Source of the DNA: an uncultured bacterium
Lineage (GTDB): Bacteria; Patescibacteriota; Minisyncoccia; Phycocordibacterales; Phycocordibacteraceae
Assembly: GCA_903825105.1 (NCBI GenBank)
Contig: CAIJZI010000005.1
Location: 18,821 to 82,820 of the forward strand
DNA: 64,000 nucleotides
Direction of reading: 5' to 3'
Below, in pieces: positions 3,484-35,987 of the stretch (positions are counted from its first letter, which is position 1; each line of letters opens with the position of its first letter). Under the pieces are notes generated by a model that was given only the letters and a program-made list of their open reading frames with translations, searched no databases and had not been told where the DNA came from. The translations under genes were made by a program, and so were the position numbers.

Positions 3484-5202
3484 ATGTTTCCGCTTCACGA
3501 CTCACTTGATAAAAATCTTCGAGAAGAATTGTCAGCATATGACGACTTAACTTCTGCACTCCTCGCGAGGCGTGGCATTTTAAAAAAAGAAGAGGCAGAA
3601 AAATTTTTGAATCCTTCGTACGATCTGCATCTCCACGATCCTTTTTTAATGACAGACATGAGAAAAGCTGCAGAGAGATTCGCCGATGCGATTTTAAAAG
3701 GGGAGAGGATCGCCGTGTGGAGCGACTATGACTGCGACGGTGTCCCGGGCGCCGTTATCCTCCACGATTTTCTTAAAAAGGTTGACGCGAATTTTGAAAT
3801 ATATATTCCGCATCGCCACGATGAAGGGTATGGGATGAATGTTGAGGGGATAGAAAAGCTTGCTTCAAATAAGGTAAAACTTATTGTCACCGTCGATTCT
3901 GGGATCACCGATCACGAGCCCGTCTCGCGTGCAAAAGAATTAGGGATTGATGTGATTATTACCGACCATCATTTACCTAAAGAAACATTGCCTGATGCAT
4001 ATGCCATTGTGAATCCGAATGCCAGAGCAGATGAAAAATATCCCTTCCATGAACTCTGTGGTTCTGGCGTCGCGTGGAAATTGGTGTGTGCTGTTCTTTT
4101 TATTTCTCCAACACTCCGAGAAAAAGCTCCGCTTGGTTGGGAGAAATGGCTACTTGATATGGTCGGGCTCGCGACCATTGCCGACATGGTCTCACTCACA
4201 GGAGAAAATCGCGTGCTCGCTACATATGGATTAAAAGTGCTGCGGAAGTCGCCACGAATTGGATTCCAAAAATTGTGTAAAGTGATGCGTGTGAATCAGC
4301 GCCAAATTACCGAAGATGATGTCGGCTTTATGATCGCGCCGCGCGTGAATGCTGCGAGCCGTATGGGTGACGCGTTTGATGCTTTTAAAATGTTTATCAC
4401 TAACGATGAGGGAGAGGCTGAGCTACTCGCGAGTAAATTAGAAAAAATAAATAAACAAAGAAAGGTTGAAGCGGGCGTCATCACGCGCGCCGTGCATACA
4501 AAGTTAAAAGAAAAAAGTGAAATAAGAAATGTCATTGCACTCGGTGATCCGGAGTGGCGGCCAGCACTTCTCGGGCTCGTCGCGGGAACCATCGCAGACG
4601 AATATGAGCGGCCTGTATTTTTATGGGGAAGGGAAGGCAACAATACTTTTAAAGGGTCGGTGCGGAGCGGGAGTGTGCACGCACTCGAGCTGATGCAGGC
4701 AGCTGAAAAAACTTTTGTTGAATTCGGCGGTCACTCAGCAGCCGGCGGTTTCACTGTGCGAGATGACGCGATATTTTTTCTCGAAGATAAATTAGTTGAA
4801 GCATATGAGCGCCTTCCAAAAAAAGAAGAGGTGGATGATATTTCTAATTATGCTGATGCAGTGATCACTCCTGAAGAAGCGAATGAATCATTTTTAAAAA
4901 AGATTGAGAAGCTGTCTCCATTTGGTATGCAAAATGCGAAGCCCGTGTTCCTGCTCCGCGAGATTGTCGTGAGAGAGATTTCACGCTTTGGAAAAGGGAA
5001 GGAACATTTAAAATTAAAAATCAGTTCGCGAGATAAAAATAATAAAATTGATGCGGTCACCTTTTTTGTAAAAGGGAATATTGCGCGCACCATTGAGACT
5101 ATTCAACCAAACGGCGTCGCGACCATTCTCGCGCATCTCGAGCGCGACACCTTCAGCTATGGCAACCCCGTCCGCTTGCGCCTTTTGGATATCAAACTAT
5201 AG
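3484..5202 (+). CDS. recJ: single-stranded-DNA-specific exonuclease RecJ
   Basis: DHH motifs (DYDCDGV, VDSGITDH, ITDHH) and DHHA1-like C-terminus; track ORF begins at TTG 3439, first ATG at 3484. Confidence 0.85.
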   Translation: MFPLHDSLDKNLREELSAYDDLTSALLARRGILKKEEAEKFLNPSYDLHLHDPFLMTDMRKAAERFADAILKGERIAVWSDYDCDGVPGAVILHDFLKKVDANFEIYIPHRHDEGYGMNVEGIEKLASNKVKLIVTVDSGITDHEPVSRAKELGIDVIITDHHLPKETLPDAYAIVNPNARADEKYPFHELCGSGVAWKLVCAVLFISPTLREKAPLGWEKWLLDMVGLATIADMVSLTGENRVLATYGLKVLRKSPRIGFQKLCKVMRVNQRQITEDDVGFMIAPRVNAASRMGDAFDAFKMFITNDEGEAELLASKLEKINKQRKVEAGVITRAVHTKLKEKSEIRNVIALGDPEWRPALLGLVAGTIADEYERPVFLWGREGNNTFKGSVRSGSVHALELMQAAEKTFVEFGGHSAAGGFTVRDDAIFFLEDKLVEAYERLPKKEEVDDISNYADAVITPEEANESFLKKIEKLSPFGMQNAKPVFLLREIVVREISRFGKGKEHLKLKISSRDKNNKIDAVTFFVKGNIARTIETIQPNGVATILAHLERDTFSYGNPVRLRLLDIKL

Positions 5203-5209
5203 TTAATTT

Positions 5210-5632
5210 ATGAATTTTACTATCAATGCCGACGGGGGATCGAGAGGTAATCCGGGAGCTTCAGGAGTTGGCGCGACGATTCGCGATGAGTCAAATACCA
5301 TTGTCGCGACGGTCTCAAAATTTCTTGGCACGCACACCAACAATTTTGCTGAATATGAATCCGTCATTCTCGCTTTTGCAGAGCTCTCAAAAATTGTTCC
5401 GGTTGGGAAAAGAGGCGAGACAAAAGTGATAGTGAAGATGGACAGCGAACTTGTTGTGAAGCAAATGCGTGGCGAGTACAAAGTAAAAAATGCGGATTTA
5501 AAAGAGCAGTACGCACGACTTCTACAAAACATCGGCGCATTCGGGAATGTTTCATTCACTCATGTGCGACGCGAATTAAATAGCGACGCCGACGCGCTCG
5601 CAAACGAAGCGATGGATCGCGGCGCGCATTAG
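5210..5632 (+). CDS. rnhA: ribonuclease HI-like protein
   Basis: 140 aa; N-terminal INADGGSRGNPGASGVG and acidic catalytic residues layout of RNase H type 1. Confidence 0.8.
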   Translation: MNFTINADGGSRGNPGASGVGATIRDESNTIVATVSKFLGTHTNNFAEYESVILAFAELSKIVPVGKRGETKVIVKMDSELVVKQMRGEYKVKNADLKEQYARLLQNIGAFGNVSFTHVRRELNSDADALANEAMDRGAH

Positions 5633-5668
5633 TTTCACACGAAGGTACTTTAAATGATTCACAAAGAA

Positions 5669-5695
5669 AGCCACCACAATCCGTGGCGGCTTTTA
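5669..5695. terminator. hairpin gccaccacaatccgtggc + T-run between convergent rnhA and 5703..6020
   Basis: 5-6 bp GC stem followed by GGCTTTT. Confidence 0.5.
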
Positions 5696-5702
5696 AATCG
5701 GT

Positions 5703-6020
5703 TCAAGCGCATTCGCTGAGAGCTTCTTCTTTTTTTCGTTCTTCCTCAAGTCCCTCAACGATCTTGCGATCTTCTTCTTCACTCGGCGCGAAACAGTCCG
5801 GGAAATGCTTGAACTTCTCATAGAAATGTTTGTCGTTCACAAATATTTCGCGGACATATTCATCTCCCGAAGCGATCGAATCAATGCAGTAATCGCAGTG
5901 ATAGGTGCGTTGAGCGACAAACGATTTGGTGGTGCGCAAGAAACGCCAATACAATCTTCGCAGTTTCCTTCGCTTCTTTTCTTCCTCTTTTTTGAACTGC
6001 TGCAAATCAACAACAGCCAT
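5703..6020 (-). CDS. hypothetical charged small protein with CxxC pair
   Basis: 105 aa ORF, lysine/glutamate-rich, HCDYC motif; no recognisable family. Confidence 0.4.
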   Translation of the reverse strand: MAVVDLQQFKKEEEKKRRKLRRLYWRFLRTTKSFVAQRTYHCDYCIDSIASGDEYVREIFVNDKHFYEKFKHFPDCFAPSEEEDRKIVEGLEEERKKEEALSECA

Positions 6021-6070
6021 CGCAGACCTCCAAAAGATCCCTCAGATCGGGATAATAGCACAAAAGAATT

Positions 6071-7693
6071 TTGAGTTCTTGCTACCATAGTTTCATGAGG
6101 TTTTTGATTTCTGTCGTCCTTGGATTTGCGAGTGGAATATTTTTGCGCTCGATTTTTATTTTTTCTTGGCCGGTCATTTTGTTTTCACTTCTTCTCGCGA
6201 TTTTATTTTTAACAGCTGCGTTTTTAAAATCGCGCCTTGCGTACACGCTTGGCGCGGTTTTTTGTTTGTTCATAGTTTTCGGAATATTGCGCGCGCAGAC
6301 TGCCGACACGCCACTCCCAAAATCTTTTGCGAGCGAATTACATCATCGTGTTTCGTATGAAGGCGTTGTTGTTTCTGATCCTGACATTCGCGATGCGAAT
6401 CAACGCTTTGAAGTGTCTGTTACAAAAAATGATGCGACAACAAAAATTCTTATTTCTACTCTGCGCACAAAAACAATTTCTGTTGGCGATAAAGTAGAGG
6501 TATCTGGAGTTCTTTTGGTTCCACAAAATTTTTCAACTGATGGTGGCCCTCCTTCGCTTGGCTTCGGCGGGACAAGTAGAGTTTTTAATTATGAAAAATA
6601 TTTACAGCGTGACGGTGTGCGATTCATTATCAATTTTGCTTCAGTAAGTGTTTTACAAAAAGCGCCATGGTATTCAATCTCATCTGCGCTCGCAAAAATA
6701 AAACATTTATTTTTAAATGGACTTTCTGCAACACTGCCCGAGCCGTATGCATCGCTCGCTGGCGGTGTCGTGATAGGAGGGAAGACCGGCCTCGGCACTG
6801 ATTTACAAAATGCATTTATAAAAAGTGGGCTGGTGCAGATCGTTGTTCTCTCTGGATACAATGTGATGATTATAGCCGAGTGGGTGATGGCGCTCCTCGC
6901 ACACACGAAACTTTCTCGCCGGTGGAGCTCGGTCGCTGGCGTGCTCGCGATTATTATTTTTGTCGGCATCGCCGGAGCGTCAGCGACCGCGATTCGTGCG
7001 TCACTTATGGCATTCATCGCGCTCTACGCGCGAGCTACAGGGAAGTCATACGCAGCGGGCCGTGCGCTTCTTCTCGCAGTCTTTCTTATGCTTATTTGGA
7101 ATCCACTTTATCTAGCCTATGATCCAGGATTTGGATTATCGGTAGCGGCGACAGCAGGAATTATTTGGCTCGCACCAGTTATTGAATCGTGGCTCGGTGA
7201 GTGGAGAAAGATTTTTCAGAGTATGCCAAGTGCAGCGAAGCGAAACGCTCTGAAAAATTTTTATCCCGAACAAGAGCCTTCTTTTTGGATAAACACAATC
7301 GCGACAACAATCGCTGCACAAATCGCTGTTCTTCCACTTCTGCTTTATGACACCGGCAATCTTTCATTCGTCGCCATTCCAGCAAATGTGCTCACGATGC
7401 CAATGGTCCCACTTGCGATGGGTCTCTCCGCGCTCGCCGGTTTCGCGGGAATTATTTTTTCAAATATTGTTCCGCTTGTTGGAATTATTTTTGCATTCCC
7501 TGCGTATGTCGCGAATGCGTATCTTATTTTCATCGCAGAAAAATCTGCGTCCCTGCCATTCGCAGCATTCACCCTTCCTGCGTTTCCGTTTTGGCTTGTA
7601 CTCGTCGTTTATGCGGCACTTATTTTCATAGCGTCGTCAAAACGCTTTTCGACGACAGACCAGTCCAAGTTTTCAAAAAAGGCGTCAATATAA
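6071..7693 (+). CDS. comEC: ComEC/Rec2-family DNA internalisation membrane protein (membrane competence domain only)
   Basis: 540 aa polytopic membrane protein; N-terminal DUF4131-like OB region and LAGGVVIGGKTGL competence-domain signature; no C-terminal MBL domain in this ORF. Confidence 0.75.
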   Translation: MSSCYHSFMRFLISVVLGFASGIFLRSIFIFSWPVILFSLLLAILFLTAAFLKSRLAYTLGAVFCLFIVFGILRAQTADTPLPKSFASELHHRVSYEGVVVSDPDIRDANQRFEVSVTKNDATTKILISTLRTKTISVGDKVEVSGVLLVPQNFSTDGGPPSLGFGGTSRVFNYEKYLQRDGVRFIINFASVSVLQKAPWYSISSALAKIKHLFLNGLSATLPEPYASLAGGVVIGGKTGLGTDLQNAFIKSGLVQIVVLSGYNVMIIAEWVMALLAHTKLSRRWSSVAGVLAIIIFVGIAGASATAIRASLMAFIALYARATGKSYAAGRALLLAVFLMLIWNPLYLAYDPGFGLSVAATAGIIWLAPVIESWLGEWRKIFQSMPSAAKRNALKNFYPEQEPSFWINTIATTIAAQIAVLPLLLYDTGNLSFVAIPANVLTMPMVPLAMGLSALAGFAGIIFSNIVPLVGIIFAFPAYVANAYLIFIAEKSASLPFAAFTLPAFPFWLVLVVYAALIFIASSKRFSTTDQSKFSKKASI

Positions 7694-31546: not shown

Positions 31547-31936
31547 ATGAAAAAATACGAGCAAGAGATAAGGAAATATCTAAAAGAACGGAAATGGGAT
31601 AATTTGCGTCCAGCAGATCTCGCAAAATCTATATCGATAGAATCAGCTGAATTGCTCGAACTTTTCCAGTGGGAGAATAAAAGTCTTGAAGAAATTAAAA
31701 AAGATAAAGAAAAAGTTGAGGCAATTAAGAAAGAATTAGCAGACGTGCTTCTTTATTGTTTTGACATGAGTGTTCTTTTGAAACTTGATACCGGAAAAAT
31801 TATTTTAGAAAAACTTAAAAAAGTAAAAGAAAAATACCCAGCACATTTATTCAAAAATAGAGACAAAAATGTTGATGCAGGTTCAGAAGAAATTTATTGG
31901 AAAATCAAAAAAGAACACAGAATGAAAGGTAAATAA
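31547..31936 (+). CDS. MazG-like nucleotide pyrophosphohydrolase
   Basis: 129 aa; ESAELLELFQW and ELADVLLYCFDM helices typical of the all-alpha NTP-PPase (MazG) fold. Confidence 0.65.
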   Translation: MKKYEQEIRKYLKERKWDNLRPADLAKSISIESAELLELFQWENKSLEEIKKDKEKVEAIKKELADVLLYCFDMSVLLKLDTGKIILEKLKKVKEKYPAHLFKNRDKNVDAGSEEIYWKIKKEHRMKGK

Positions 31937-31940
31937 TTTG

Positions 31941-32013
31941 TGCGCCCAGGTGGACTCGAACCACCGACCAACGGCTTAAAAGACCGCTGCTCTACCAGCT
32001 GAGCTATGGGCGC
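31941..32013 (-). tRNA. tRNA-Lys (anticodon TTT)
   Basis: cloverleaf folds: acceptor gcgccca/tgggcgc, anticodon loop cTTTTaa, T-loop ttcgagt. Confidence 0.85.
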
Positions 32014-32047: not shown

Positions 32048-32974
32048 CTAGTAGCTAAATGCATCTACCGTTTTTCCACTCGCGTCGAGCAGTTTTACCA
32101 ATTCATTTTTTGTTCGCCATATCGAGTTGGTATGGCCTAAATAAACTCGCCAGACAGTACCTTCAAAATCAGCATCTTTTTGGTGTGTGGTTAAACAGCC
32201 GTTGTAGTTCAAATAATTTGCCACAAAACTTTGGCAGGCGCTCGTGATGCCGACCGGCGGAGTGAGAGCGGTCTGGCATCTATTTAATTTATTAACATAC
32301 TCAATACAGACACTGTCGCGAATATAATAATTGCCATAGTTCGCGAGAAGTTCGTCTGATGGAGAAGGGCACACTTGTGGCAGCACCGGATAAAAATTCT
32401 GGAATGAGCTAAAGTAGCCGATGCACTTATTCTCTTTAAACGAGGCGCCGATGGGCGATCGCCCAGAAATAAGAATGGCCTTTTCTCCGGGAGTTAACAC
32501 AATGTCCTGTGCCTCATTTATCACTCCAGAAGTTGGTGTCTCTGTTCCTTTTGGGATAACTGCTCCATTTCCCGTAGCGCCGCTGGTAATCGTCCAGCCA
32601 GTAATATCTACTGGAACATTCGCTGTGTCTGAAACAGATAATTCAACATATTCATTTGAAGGTTCTGAAGACCCCGCGCCAGAAACAGATTCGCTCATCA
32701 TCACGATCCCACGATAAATCGAAGGAGACCCGTAAAGTGCGCCGCCGACAAGAGACGGGACATTTGTGCTAGAACCATTTTGGACACTCCAACTACTCCC
32801 GCCGATACTAAATGGGGCAATAGGGAAACTTAAGTAAGTGCCGGTCCCAAGAGATTTTGGCAACGATAATGTCGGGCCCGTAAAAGCGATTGGATGTTTC
32901 GGACCGCCGATAATAACCCATATAACAAATATGAATGCGAATATGCCGATAAAAAACCACGCATCGTGCTCCAT
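32048..32974 (-). CDS. membrane-anchored protein with lamin-tail-like domain
   Basis: N-terminal TM; NEYVELSVSDTANVPVDITGWTI resembles LTD core (EYVEL..GW). Confidence 0.45.
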   Translation of the reverse strand: MEHDAWFFIGIFAFIFVIWVIIGGPKHPIAFTGPTLSLPKSLGTGTYLSFPIAPFSIGGSSWSVQNGSSTNVPSLVGGALYGSPSIYRGIVMMSESVSGAGSSEPSNEYVELSVSDTANVPVDITGWTITSGATGNGAVIPKGTETPTSGVINEAQDIVLTPGEKAILISGRSPIGASFKENKCIGYFSSFQNFYPVLPQVCPSPSDELLANYGNYYIRDSVCIEYVNKLNRCQTALTPPVGITSACQSFVANYLNYNGCLTTHQKDADFEGTVWRVYLGHTNSIWRTKNELVKLLDASGKTVDAFSY

Positions 32975-33067
32975 ACAGGTATAGTAGCAGAGAGAAAGGT
33001 CTTTACAATAAAAAGTGAGCAGGGTAGCTTAACTACGGAAGTGATCTTTTAACGGGGAGGGGAATAA

Positions 33068-33793
33068 ATGAGAAATGGAAGAGCCTATCCGAAAGGATAT
33101 CGGTACATTCCGATCGAAAGCCAAATAAGCACACTCTCTAATCTGTTTGGCGTAGACGATCGACCTGCACTCGGTTATTCAAAAAACACGGGGCGCCCCC
33201 CGTCGGATGGATTGTTTGCTGTGTTGAGGAGTGGAGCGTTTTCTCCTTCCTCTCATCATTTTGCAGAAATTTATCAAAACGTTTGCAAGTCTGTCGCAAG
33301 AGAGATAGGAGTCAAGGTTTTAGGAACGAGCATCTCATCTTTTATCAGATTTGCACACACAAGAAACACGCTCGAAGAAATCGCTGAGATTCAGAATGGC
33401 AGCGACATTCTGATAATCAGTGCCCAACTTGGTCTCGAGCGCTGTGGCCAGTCGGTGGATTACGCCAGGAAAGATTGCTCGATAAGCCGGCGCGGCGAAT
33501 TCTGTCTCGGCACCTTGGAACTACTCTCGATCGCCATAACTCATCCGCATCGCTTTTCAGATAACGAAGGGCTTGGTGTTGATTGTGCTGGCGATTCAGC
33601 AGACAAGCACGGATTCCCAGCATCTCCGGTATTAAGACCTTTAGGGAACGGAGATCTTGTATTGTCGTCATGCTTTTCAGATGGGACGAGTGATATTTAC
33701 GGGGTTCCAACTGGTTTTTTCTCTCCGGCGGCACAACGCTCGGTTGAACTTAAAAGGAAAGGCAGGTTACCAAAACTCGCCTTCGCTGTATGA
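33068..33793 (+). CDS. hypothetical protein, tandem paralog 1 (THPxRF / CAG[DE] motifs)
   Basis: 241 aa; GGGGAGGGG RBS; aligns with the downstream ORF over several motifs; locally GC-rich. Confidence 0.5.
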   Translation: MRNGRAYPKGYRYIPIESQISTLSNLFGVDDRPALGYSKNTGRPPSDGLFAVLRSGAFSPSSHHFAEIYQNVCKSVAREIGVKVLGTSISSFIRFAHTRNTLEEIAEIQNGSDILIISAQLGLERCGQSVDYARKDCSISRRGEFCLGTLELLSIAITHPHRFSDNEGLGVDCAGDSADKHGFPASPVLRPLGNGDLVLSSCFSDGTSDIYGVPTGFFSPAAQRSVELKRKGRLPKLAFAV

Positions 33794-33921
33794 ACAAGAA
33801 TTTATAGGCAGTCACTTTATGTGGCTGCCTATTTTCTTATTTTCCGCAACAATAGTGTGTCTTGATAATTGTCATCTTGTACGTTAATTTGCAGGAGGAC
33901 AGAAGCTCTTTAGGAGGCGAA

Positions 33922-34686
33922 ATGAATACTATCAGAACGCAGATCAAAAATCTCGCAGAGATTTTTGACTTAGATCCGCGTCCGGCACGTGCTTTCGCGA
34001 TGGAGTTGCCGGATATTCCAGATGGCGCAGAGGCGTGGGTCGCGCGTCCAGCGATTGAGGCGTTGCAGAGGAACTACTTTCCTCAAATAAACGACCCGGA
34101 CAAAATGCACTGTCGGGGCATCGAGCTTGTATTGTCGAAGATCCAGGAACACCGGGAGCTTCATAATCAATTCCACTCTCGACTCGAGAGAGTAATAAAA
34201 CCGAACCAGTTGCGAATTCATTCGCGCACGGTGCCATTTTTGGATCAAATCGCACAGGCTCAAAAAGGTGACATCCAAATCATCGCGGTTCAACTCGGGC
34301 GACTCTATTGTGAAGAATCCGTTTCAGATGCTCGGTTGAGTTTTTTCGAAAACGAATTCGGTCTGGACAGCATAACAGTGGGTTCTGTCATACTGACTCA
34401 TCCTAGGAGATTCATTAACATGGATGATCGGTATGTTTTCTGCGCCGGAGAAGAGTGCTGTGGTGAGCATATAGAATTCAAAAATTGCCCGTCGTTTGAC
34501 CAGTTTCTTTCCCGTAGTGGGGGGGGGATCAGCTGTATCAGTTACGGTTATGGCGGCATCCACTACAAAAGTTCTTTCTATGGGGCGGCCTCGGGATTTG
34601 TCCCGGAATTGCGCGCGACAAAAGGTAAGCGCGTAAGATCTTGGAAGATTCCTATCCCTATGCGTACACAACCCGTTTTCGCTTAA
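33922..34686 (+). CDS. hypothetical protein, tandem paralog 2
   Basis: ATG 33922 after AGGAGG; shares LxxxFxxDxRPA, QxGxDIxIIAxQLG, ILTHPxRF, CAG motifs with 33068..33793. Confidence 0.5.
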   Translation: MNTIRTQIKNLAEIFDLDPRPARAFAMELPDIPDGAEAWVARPAIEALQRNYFPQINDPDKMHCRGIELVLSKIQEHRELHNQFHSRLERVIKPNQLRIHSRTVPFLDQIAQAQKGDIQIIAVQLGRLYCEESVSDARLSFFENEFGLDSITVGSVILTHPRRFINMDDRYVFCAGEECCGEHIEFKNCPSFDQFLSRSGGGISCISYGYGGIHYKSSFYGAASGFVPELRATKGKRVRSWKIPIPMRTQPVFA

Positions 34687-34703
34687 AAACAGGGCTATCT
34701 AAA

Positions 34704-35987
34704 TCAGATAGCCCTGTTGTTTTTTAATTTTTCTAATTCTTCCCGTACGACAGTTGCATCGCTCCAGGGAGTTTTAGAACCATGAGAACCCATTATAAAA
34801 GGGTCAGTGCCTTTGCCAGAAATCAAAACAGCGTCGCCAGAGCGCGCCGCGCGAAGCGCGGCGTGTATCGCTTCTCTTCTATCCATAATAATTTCTGGCA
34901 CGCGAGACATTCCGCCCGCTATATCATTAATAATTTTTTCTGGATCTTCGTCATATGGATCTTCATTGGTGAGAATAACTTTTCCGCAACACTCGTCCGC
35001 AATTTTGCCCATCTCTGGCCTTTTCCAAGAATCGCGTCCTCCGCCGGTGCTGCCAAGCACACAGATCTTTTTGTGATTTGCGAACGCGCCATACAGAGCC
35101 TGAAGTGAATCGGGTGTGTGTGCATAATCAACAACGGCGATAAAATCTTGACCCATATCAATTCGCTCCACACGACCACGCACCACAGGAAGATTTTTTA
35201 ATGCCGCTGACGCTGCCGAGAGAGAAATACCAAATGCCTCGCAGAGTTTTATTGTCGCGAGCGCATTCATCGCATTAAAAACGCCTGGGATCGGCAGTGA
35301 GAAATGAGTATCGGCATAATCAAATGCAATACTGCTATCATCGCTCGAAACATTTTTAAGTTCCTGCTTGCTAAACCCGATTGCTTTTGAAACTTTTGAA
35401 GAAAGAAATTCGCGGCTTTCGAGGGCATCTTCATTCGCGACGAGAATTTTAGAATGTTTTGGAGAGTTCGCGAGTGTTTCAACTATTTTTCTTTTTGCGG
35501 CAACATACTTTTCAAATGAGCCGTGGCTCTCAATGTGCTCACGCTGGATGTTTGTCACAATAAGTCCATCAAGATACAAAAATAAATTGCGATATTGCAA
35601 GACACTTTCAGAAGTCACTTCAATCACCATGTGCGTACAGCCAGCCTTCAAAGCGCGACGCATAAATGCTTGTGCGAAGCCGCGCCCTTGGAGCGTCATT
35701 TTGTACAAATTTTGTTCAGAATTATCTTCAATAGCGAAGCGAATGGTAGAAATAAGCGCTGTTTTGTATCCCGCTTTTCGCAATACGGCAAAAAGCATTT
35801 CAGCCGTTGTCGATTTTCCTTTTGTTCCTGTAACACCGATAACGGTGAGCTTTTTAGCAGGGAAGCCATAAGCGAATGCCATAACATAAGCGAGAACGCA
35901 GTGGTACGCTGGCAAAAGTGGACGAACGATGCTTTTTGGGAGAATCTTTTTTAAAATCTTGACGACAATATTTATAAATTTGTACAT
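34704..35987 (-). CDS. Mur ligase family protein (MurE/MurF-like) with N-terminal membrane extension
   Basis: GVTGTKGKSTT P-loop, Mur ligase middle and C-terminal domains. Confidence 0.7.
   Translation of the reverse strand: MYKFINIVVKILKKILPKSIVRPLLPAYHCVLAYVMAFAYGFPAKKLTVIGVTGTKGKSTTAEMLFAVLRKAGYKTALISTIRFAIEDNSEQNLYKMTLQGRGFAQAFMRRALKAGCTHMVIEVTSESVLQYRNLFLYLDGLIVTNIQREHIESHGSFEKYVAAKRKIVETLANSPKHSKILVANEDALESREFLSSKVSKAIGFSKQELKNVSSDDSSIAFDYADTHFSLPIPGVFNAMNALATIKLCEAFGISLSAASAALKNLPVVRGRVERIDMGQDFIAVVDYAHTPDSLQALYGAFANHKKICVLGSTGGGRDSWKRPEMGKIADECCGKVILTNEDPYDEDPEKIINDIAGGMSRVPEIIMDRREAIHAALRAARSGDAVLISGKGTDPFIMGSHGSKTPWSDATVVREELEKLKNNRAI

Follow-up and report, generated by a model that had tools for sequence, protein, structure and literature searches.

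Two adjacent Patescibacterial genes as probable frozen members of a family of diversity-generating retroelement targets

Two paralogous genes within a conserved gene string

An uncultured bacterium of the Phycocordibacteraceae (Patescibacteriota) carries two adjacent genes, A and B, on contig CAIJZI010000005.1 of assembly GCA_903825105.1 (Table 1). They lie in a stretch of 64,000 nucleotides that was analyzed as a whole and is referred to here as the window. We consider it highly probable that A and B are orphaned, frozen members of a protein family targeted elsewhere by diversity-generating retroelements (DGRs), and that they were inserted into a conserved operon. To our knowledge, adaptive immunity aside, DGRs are the only natural means of hypermutating proteins in a targeted way. 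Patescibacteria are especially rich in them, and their targets there lack recognizable domains and known functions.

A preliminary description of this DNA had proposed two tandem paralogs with strong ribosome-binding sites, and both open reading frames (ORFs) were confirmed. The homology of their products is real, at 28% identity over 179 amino acids by BLASTP (E=2e-13), and the alignment survives shuffling (Smith-Waterman score of 133 vs 31.4 +/- 4.9 in 1000 shuffles with a maximum of 64, z=20.9). The four collinear motifs given in that description are present in both proteins, a Shine-Dalgarno site precedes each gene, and the neighbors are the ones it named: a tRNA-Lys, a protein with a lamin tail domain (LTD) and a Mur ligase. 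A and B each have their own ribosome-binding site and their own terminator hairpin, and the hairpin that follows B is likely a bidirectional terminator of B and the Mur ligase gene. Judging from its letters, TTGATA-N17-TAATTT upstream of B may be a promoter; a consensus promoter scan did not flag it. The G9 run in B codes for Gly-Gly-Gly within a 2-residue insertion relative to the orthologs and is possibly prone to slippage; it is identical in three assemblies.

Table 1. Features of the locus of genes A and B, in window coordinates
Feature	Position	Strand	Basis or remark
Gene A	33068..33793	+	ORF, 241 aa
Gene B	33922..34686	+	ORF, 254 aa
Shine-Dalgarno site of A, GGGGAGGGG	33054..33062	+	5 nt 5' of ATG; sequence reading
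Variable-region equivalent of A, aa 178-219, DCAGDS (excluded) to TGFFS	33599..33724	+	Family-profile mapping
Basic C-terminal tail of A, PAAQRSVELKRKGRLPKLAFAV	33725..33790	+	Tail comparison, 153 family proteins
Terminator-like hairpin 3' of A, 12-bp stem then T run	33804..33832	+	
DNA 5' of B, conserved at orthologous loci; TTGATA-N17-TAATTT and AGGAGG	33860..33921	+	Alignment to L001, L002
Shine-Dalgarno site of B, AGGAGG	33912..33917	+	Sequence reading
Variable-region equivalent of B, read as frozen, aa 179-228, CAGEE (excluded) to SGFVP	34456..34605	+	Family-profile mapping
G9 homopolymer within the variable-region equivalent of B	34519..34527	+	Sequence reading, ortholog alignment
Basic C-terminal tail of B, ELRATKGKRVRSWKIPIPMRTQPVFA	34606..34683	+	Tail comparison, 153 family proteins
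Hairpin with 13-bp stem between B and the convergent Mur ligase gene	34688..34718	.	Likely bidirectional terminator
LTD-domain protein gene	32048..32974	-	PF00932, E=2.7e-8; synteny
Mur ligase family gene	34704..35987	-	PF08245 2.3e-29, PF02875 3.6e-25; synteny
tRNA-Lys	31940..32013		1 kb from the pair, past the conserved LTD gene

Gene order in relatives indicates that the pair was added to this locus. Among 49 related Patescibacteria loci (Kaiserbacteria-like, with Mur ligases 47-75% identical), 46 have ruvA followed by the Mur ligase gene and, directly 3' of it on the same strand, the LTD gene; an Fpg-like gene lies between the latter two in three other loci. Here A and B intervene, so that presence and absence in relatives bear out a break in a widely kept adjacency; as judged by synteny, the two genes are an insertion into a conserved ruvA-Mur ligase-LTD string. 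B lies between the Mur ligase gene and the LTD gene, on the strand opposite to theirs, only in the window, in two orthologous loci (L001 and L002) and on a short contig (L003). Its upstream region is related to those of L001 and L002 (z = 21 and 9 against shuffles). A was found only in this genome and on two identical short contigs, L004 and L005. Those contigs, from two ENA assemblies, both start at window position 32877, inside the LTD gene, and match the window with 100% identity for 2.3-2.5 kb, which suggests a recurrent assembly break at that point.

A Kaiserbacteria metagenome-assembled genome whose Mur ligase is 70% identical (L018) carries a complete DGR between S20 and ruvA (4736-7165), four genes from the site equivalent to that of B. 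It comprises a reverse transcriptase (RT) gene (4736-5629, minus strand), a bAvd-like gene (5757-6107, plus strand) and an adenine-rich stretch resembling a template repeat (TR). Its target, of 210 aa, belongs to a different family, and its variable region (VR) is masked by N; by eye, the N terminus of that target resembles the N-terminal extension found in mainstream members of the A/B family.

The protein family and its retroelement-linked members

The preliminary description had found no recognizable family for A and B. This holds for curated libraries: neither protein has a credible match in Pfam, NCBIfam, PHROGs or PADLOC, where the best scores are at chance level (MinD 0.24, WhiB-like 0.094, SIR2 0.058). 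It does not hold for profile searches, which recovered 1279 cluster representatives at E<=1e-3 (679 at <=1e-10) of what proved to be a Patescibacterial DGR-target family. The family hidden Markov model recognizes B at an E-value of 4.6e-78 and A at 2.7e-48. Word-indexed searches returned three orthologs of B (63-70% identity) and, for A, only A itself; such searches yielded just 4-6 relatives overall, and a first GTDB scan with patterns from the B clade found no family member. The family is marked by the motifs YPxxYxGPxPIxxQ, GAEGWFAIP, QxGDILIIAAQLG, NEFGL, LTHPER, DCAGDE and GSASGF. All named members are annotated as hypothetical proteins; they include one from Bradyrhizobium (WP_157783768, of which no mention was found in the literature) and one from Ignavibacteriales. 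Sixty family members searched against Pfam gave no recurrent family at E<=0.01 or at E<=10, and among these 60, no match to FGE-sulfatase, DUF1566 or Lectin_C appeared at E<=10. Searches of PDB sequences with three profiles, including full-length and C-terminal ones, and tblastn of A and B against annotated phage and plasmid collections were likewise without a match.

The identity of the family comes from the surroundings of its mainstream members, for which we used 80 metagenome loci and two IMG/VR loci; the family gene could be called in 67 of these. An RT gene (297-371 aa) lies within four genes of the family gene in 21 of the 67 loci, and a helical protein of 117 aa is encoded two genes from it in 13. 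The former matches PF00078 RVT_1 (7.9e-20) and the latter PF22296 bAvd (6.9e-18). At 20 of the 21 loci with an RT gene, the final ~124-137 nt of the family gene recur nearby at 81-90% identity, and the mismatches between VR and TR fall nearly all at TR adenines (25/25, 21/21, 18/18, 15/15 and 22/24, for example). At the remaining locus, L121, the contig ends inside the gene, and there is only a 35-nt match. Where the flanks reach 3 kb or more in both directions (25 loci), RT and TR are both present in 11. These RT and bAvd neighbors, and mismatches between the TR and the 3' end of the gene that are almost confined to adenines, identify the family by its sequence signature as variable proteins targeted by DGRs in Patescibacteria and their phages.

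The VR runs from immediately after DCAGDE to GSASGFLP. Profile columns 209, 214, 216, 219, 221, 225, 229, 231 and 233 correspond to TR codons with two adenines; these nine columns are mostly two apart and, in the structural model described below, would lie on the last three predicted beta-strands. In DGR-linked genes, the stop codon coincides exactly with the VR end, which reads ...CCGCAGTAA where the TR has CCGAAGT. Near-identical DGR-linked pairs share 195 of 196 residues outside the VR and 1-3 of 10 at the hypervariable columns. At one locus (L132), two tandem paralogs each match a single TR.

Phage genes (large terminase, portal, major head protein, endolysin, integrase) stand beside the cassette at 9 or more of the 67 loci. 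At L131 (5048-14635) and L173 (2399-19433), cassettes targeting the family lie inside Patescibacteria phage or prophage modules, with a large terminase (phrog_38, 9e-77), a portal/adaptor, a major head protein (7.8e-39), an endolysin and a serine integrase as neighbors. Two loci from replicate groundwater samples, L116 (gene at ~6764) and L118 (~3252), are identical at 195 of 195 positions outside the VR and at 29 of 45 inside it. Around the L116 gene, neither an RT nor a TR is present in 6.7 kb upstream and 3.3 kb downstream, and the flanks of L118 extend for just 3.3 kb and 0.6 kb. Such variation suggests the action of a more distant DGR.

Both proteins of the window can be aligned directly to DGR-linked members. 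A is 33% identical over 244 aa to the proteins of L107, L108 and L173 (E=2.5e-26), and B is 42-43% identical to those of L101 and L114 (E about 1e-54, best 5e-55); L107, L108, L114 and L173 carry TR/VR pairs. The family has 54 columns with conservation of at least 85%, of which 38 are retained in A and 40 in B. Many mainstream members have an N-terminal extension of ~60-100 aa that A and B lack. An AlphaFold2 model of B built from 60 input sequences was confident (pLDDT 89.8, pTM 0.87), compared to a pLDDT of 35 when 5 sequences were used. The Foldseek check of this model agrees with the absence of a recognizable PDB relative (best E 0.19, TM 0.13), and no significant match was found among viral models either.

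Tandem pairs recur in the family. Two full-length copies are found at L092, L132, L144 and L158, the second copies at L092 (5820), L132 (1493) and L144 (5583) form their own subclade, and P0067 (478 aa) is a head-to-tail fusion of two family copies; the recurrent pairs and this fusion hint at a two-subunit arrangement. There are five other loci with two hits, and in at least three of these (L114, L150 and L169) the second hit covers the template repeat. On four Ignavibacteriales contigs (L008-L011, 2700-4900), a family member with a 50-aa tail, P0089, follows a 46-aa ORF and a radical-SAM/SPASM gene with no RT nearby, and this link may be coincidental.

A variable region that no longer varies

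No DGR was detected around A and B. By tblastn, neither RT nor Avd was found in the window (best E 0.05), nor was an RT found at the orthologous loci L001 and L002. The window contains no direct repeats of 40 bp or longer, no TR-like match to A or B elsewhere by relaxed blastn (best E 0.12) and no third family member.

Compared with its orthologs, B changes no more quickly in its VR equivalent than in the remainder of the protein. Over all pairs in the B clade, identity is 60-86% in the VR equivalent vs 68-84% outside it, and for B against its orthologs, it is 60-63% vs 68-77% before the VR. The orthologs share 5-9 of the 10 formerly hypervariable columns, as opposed to 1-3 of 10 in diversified control pairs that are at least 99% identical elsewhere. 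The ratio of nonsynonymous to synonymous substitution rates (dN/dS) is 0.09-0.19 for the clade overall (three species), and the L001-L002 pair has 0.17 for the VR equivalent vs 0.12 for the part preceding it. Because of these ratios and the identity of orthologs at the hypervariable columns, B is, as far as sequence comparison can tell, a selected gene whose VR is no longer diversifying.

The codons at these columns may retain a trace of the earlier state. NNY codons (Y, pyrimidine) occupy each of the 10 formerly hypervariable columns in B and in its L001 and L002 orthologs, compared to a gene-wide NNY fraction of 0.53-0.56, and they include every Leu, Ser, Arg and Gly codon where the third base was free to vary. 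The chance of 10/10 is about 0.002 by a simple binomial; the three genes are not independent samples. Since adenine mutagenesis of AAY codons leaves such codons, we read the 10/10 NNY in B as its fossil. A has NNY at just 4 of the 10 columns, and its VR equivalent keeps the scaffold residues F, P, G and GF.

The end of the VR has also changed. Most family proteins (138 of 153) end within 6 residues of the SGF motif, and tails longer than 15 aa occur in only 9 of the 153, namely A, B, the orthologs of B, P0006 and P0089, a count that includes A and B twice through their database copies P0005 and P0001. In A, B, the orthologs of B and P0006, the tail comprises 21-27 residues and is basic. The stop at the VR end of DGR-linked genes (an initiation-of-mutagenic-homing-like CCGCAG then stop) is replaced by coding sequence that continues for 22 codons in A and 26 in B. 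The tail of B evolves faster than the rest of the protein (dN/dS about 0.47-0.49). The shared tail hints, on this comparison, that A and B come from a common tailed sublineage, and it may add a new interaction.

Together, these observations can be accommodated as follows. In DGR-linked relatives, the RT and bAvd copy the TR with errors at adenines, and the product overwrites the last ~130 nt of the target gene. The VR so rewritten is predicted to form three beta-strands in which every second residue varies, and the gene stops where it ends. B would have been inserted between the Mur ligase and LTD genes, on the opposite strand, in a common ancestor of a few related species and kept since by purifying selection with its VR frozen. 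A would be a second and much more divergent copy confined to this genome, and in both genes the stop at the VR end would have been exchanged for a short basic tail. No signal peptide is visible in the sequence of A or B. By analogy with other variable proteins, we infer that A and B may be cytoplasmic binding proteins of fixed specificity that act through the former variable face.

Known systems, alternative explanations and significance

The closest known system is that of the targets in Patescibacteria, or candidate phyla radiation (CPR), described as cellular 'clade 2' by Roux et al. (2021) and, as six 'unknown VR' classes (UVR1-6) among CPR DGRs, by Wu et al. (2018, PMC5758913); the A/B family could be one of the published UVR classes. 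CPR targets are usually without recognizable domains, and uncharacterized VR domains have been presumed to be new variants of the C-type lectin (Roux et al. 2021, PMC8144416). Like these targets, A and B are homologous to proteins with a C-terminal, TR-matched VR of ~43 residues beside RT and bAvd, keep the scaffold residues of the VR, and have no signal peptide, transmembrane segment or known domain (PMC8144416). Unlike them, A and B have no RT, Avd or TR in 64 kb, lack the N-terminal extension, and continue past the VR end into a basic tail, and the VR equivalent of B appears frozen under purifying selection.

Similarities to targets with the C-type-lectin fold and solved structures (Mtd, TvpA, AvpA and TaqVP) are that the C-terminal VR of the family ends in an invariant, adenine-free ...G-F, and that the spacing of its hypervariable AAY codons would place the variable side chains on a single face. 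By analogy with such targets, a binding surface is expected (PMC8144416, PMC5006420 and PMC6328139). The family differs from them in lacking a Pfam match to FGE-sulfatase, DUF1566 or Lectin_C and any PDB or Foldseek match. A and B also resemble remote, non-adjacent DGR targets (PMC5758913) in being target-family genes with no RT within the window. In true remote targets, the VR still agrees with the TR at all positions other than adenines, whereas A and B have no TR match in the window and B is undiversified between species.

Remote targeting is the main rival of the frozen-copy reading: A, B or both could still be active targets of a remote DGR in the same genome. This rival stands because our search covered 64 kb and because the L116 and L118 genes are hypervariable in the VR, and only there, with no RT in the 3-7 kb around them. 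Cellular DGRs are documented to act on remote targets (PMC5758913; PMC8144416), which can lie more than 100 kb away (PMC5758913), and the close relative L018 carries its DGR at a distance of four genes from the corresponding position. All hypervariable columns of B have NNY codons, and B and its orthologs disagree at 4-5 of the 10, in each case NNY to NNY, as would also result from past or rare DGR activity. These points weigh against our preferred reading, as do three more: A has no orthologs, and the comparison of variability and selection concerns the B clade only; the binding function is proposed solely by analogy with solved DGR variable proteins; and near-invariant polar residues before the VR could mark the active site of an enzyme. 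Against a remote DGR, the B orthologs share most or at least half of their hypervariable residues at 68-84% overall identity, while diversified pairs share 1-3 of 10 at ~100%, and the dN/dS of 0.17 in the VR equivalent indicates constraint. The VR end and stop (CCGCAGTAA) have given way to a coding tail of 22-26 aa in both genes, A has 4/10 NNY codons only, and three assemblies of the A/B stretch are 100% identical. We therefore regard ongoing remote diversification as unlikely.

The polar residues raise a second alternative, in which the family consists of enzymes with a variable substrate-binding end and A and B are isozymes. A Gln, Ser, Arg, Glu and Cys (the C of DCAGDE) are near-invariant just before the VR and are all kept in A and B, and the part of the protein preceding the VR is extremely conserved. 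No similarity to enzyme families or solved structures was found, and residues conserved next to the VR are equally expected of a scaffold, as reported for DGR targets (PMC8144416), which makes an enzyme improbable. A papain-like Gln/Cys/His triad was considered and dropped because the His of LTHPER is Asn in the orthologs of B, a substitution that also speaks against an enzyme more generally. A Toprim-like E...DxD reading had no supporting match.

It might also be argued that A, and perhaps B, are decaying, non-functional remnants. A, confined to this genome and highly divergent, no longer shows the NNY signature and departs from the family at several conserved residues (W63L, P67L, R102V and G167C), and the tails evolve fast. 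Yet both ORFs are intact with their own Shine-Dalgarno sites and terminators, B shows a dN/dS of 0.09-0.19 across three species, and A still keeps 38 of the 54 conserved columns. Patescibacterial genomes are compact and seldom retain dead genes, and we give decay little credence.

Finally, the preliminary description had viewed the pair as a duplicated, possibly horizontally acquired module of markedly higher GC. Paralogy and insertion stand, but the compositional case and a recent tandem copy do not. GC is 0.476 in the 1619-bp region vs a mean of 0.446 (standard deviation 0.029) in windows of the same size, at the 85th percentile; because this is within about one standard deviation, the compositional argument for horizontal transfer fails. 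In a ranking of the window's 67 ORFs, the GC content of A is at the 79th percentile and that of B at the 81st, their GC at third codon positions (GC3) is at the 58th and 88th, and the adjacent ruvA is richer in GC than the region (0.509). Codon usage is mildly atypical, with the fit to window usage at the 7th percentile for A and the 12th for B. A matches mainstream members best (98 bits at 33% identity, compared with 54 bits at 28% for B), and A does not pair with B in a neighbor-joining tree. Their upstream regions are unrelated (z 0-2.5), which rules out A as a recent copy of B that includes the promoter. It is possible that A arose by an old duplication followed by fast divergence, or by a second acquisition. 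No integrase or other phage-protein homologs were found in the window with the proteins seen near relatives as queries, and a phage or prophage context was rejected because homologs of these proteins are missing. The window also has no direct repeats of at least 40 bp flanking the pair, and the tRNA-Lys is 1 kb away, beyond the LTD gene. The shared rare tail suggests one sublineage, and tandem pairs, along with the P0067 fusion, recur in the family; even so, a GC-rich island formed by local tandem duplication of a gene of no known family is very improbable given that GC is not elevated, A is nearer to mainstream members than to B, and the family can be identified through its DGR-linked members.

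A real compositional outlier does lie beside A and B: a MazG-like gene (31547-31936, plus strand; PF12643, E=4.9e-10) between holA and tRNA-Lys has a GC of 0.30 and a GC3 of 0.24, vs 0.447 for the window, and is missing from the syntenic locus L002.

A more far-reaching possibility, which we put forward tentatively and regard as doubtful, is that the family is a DGR scaffold other than the C-type lectin, with a new alpha/beta fold that carries the hypervariable face on its last three beta-strands and that was domesticated in A and B. Domestication would have involved loss of the retroelement, freezing of the VR with its NNY fossil, and addition of the basic tail, resulting in a cytoplasmic protein of fixed specificity that selection maintains in a minimal Patescibacterial genome. 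If it is true that the fold is not that of a C-type lectin, the family would break the rule that all DGR VRs use that fold. Two anonymous genes gain a family identity from this work, and a family of more than 1,000 clusters that is absent from Pfam is defined along with a confident structural model. The locus offers a natural comparison between diversifying copies and frozen, selected ones. Frozen copies are easier to study, since each has one sequence and a search for its ligand is feasible, and they may show what a DGR target becomes after diversification ends.

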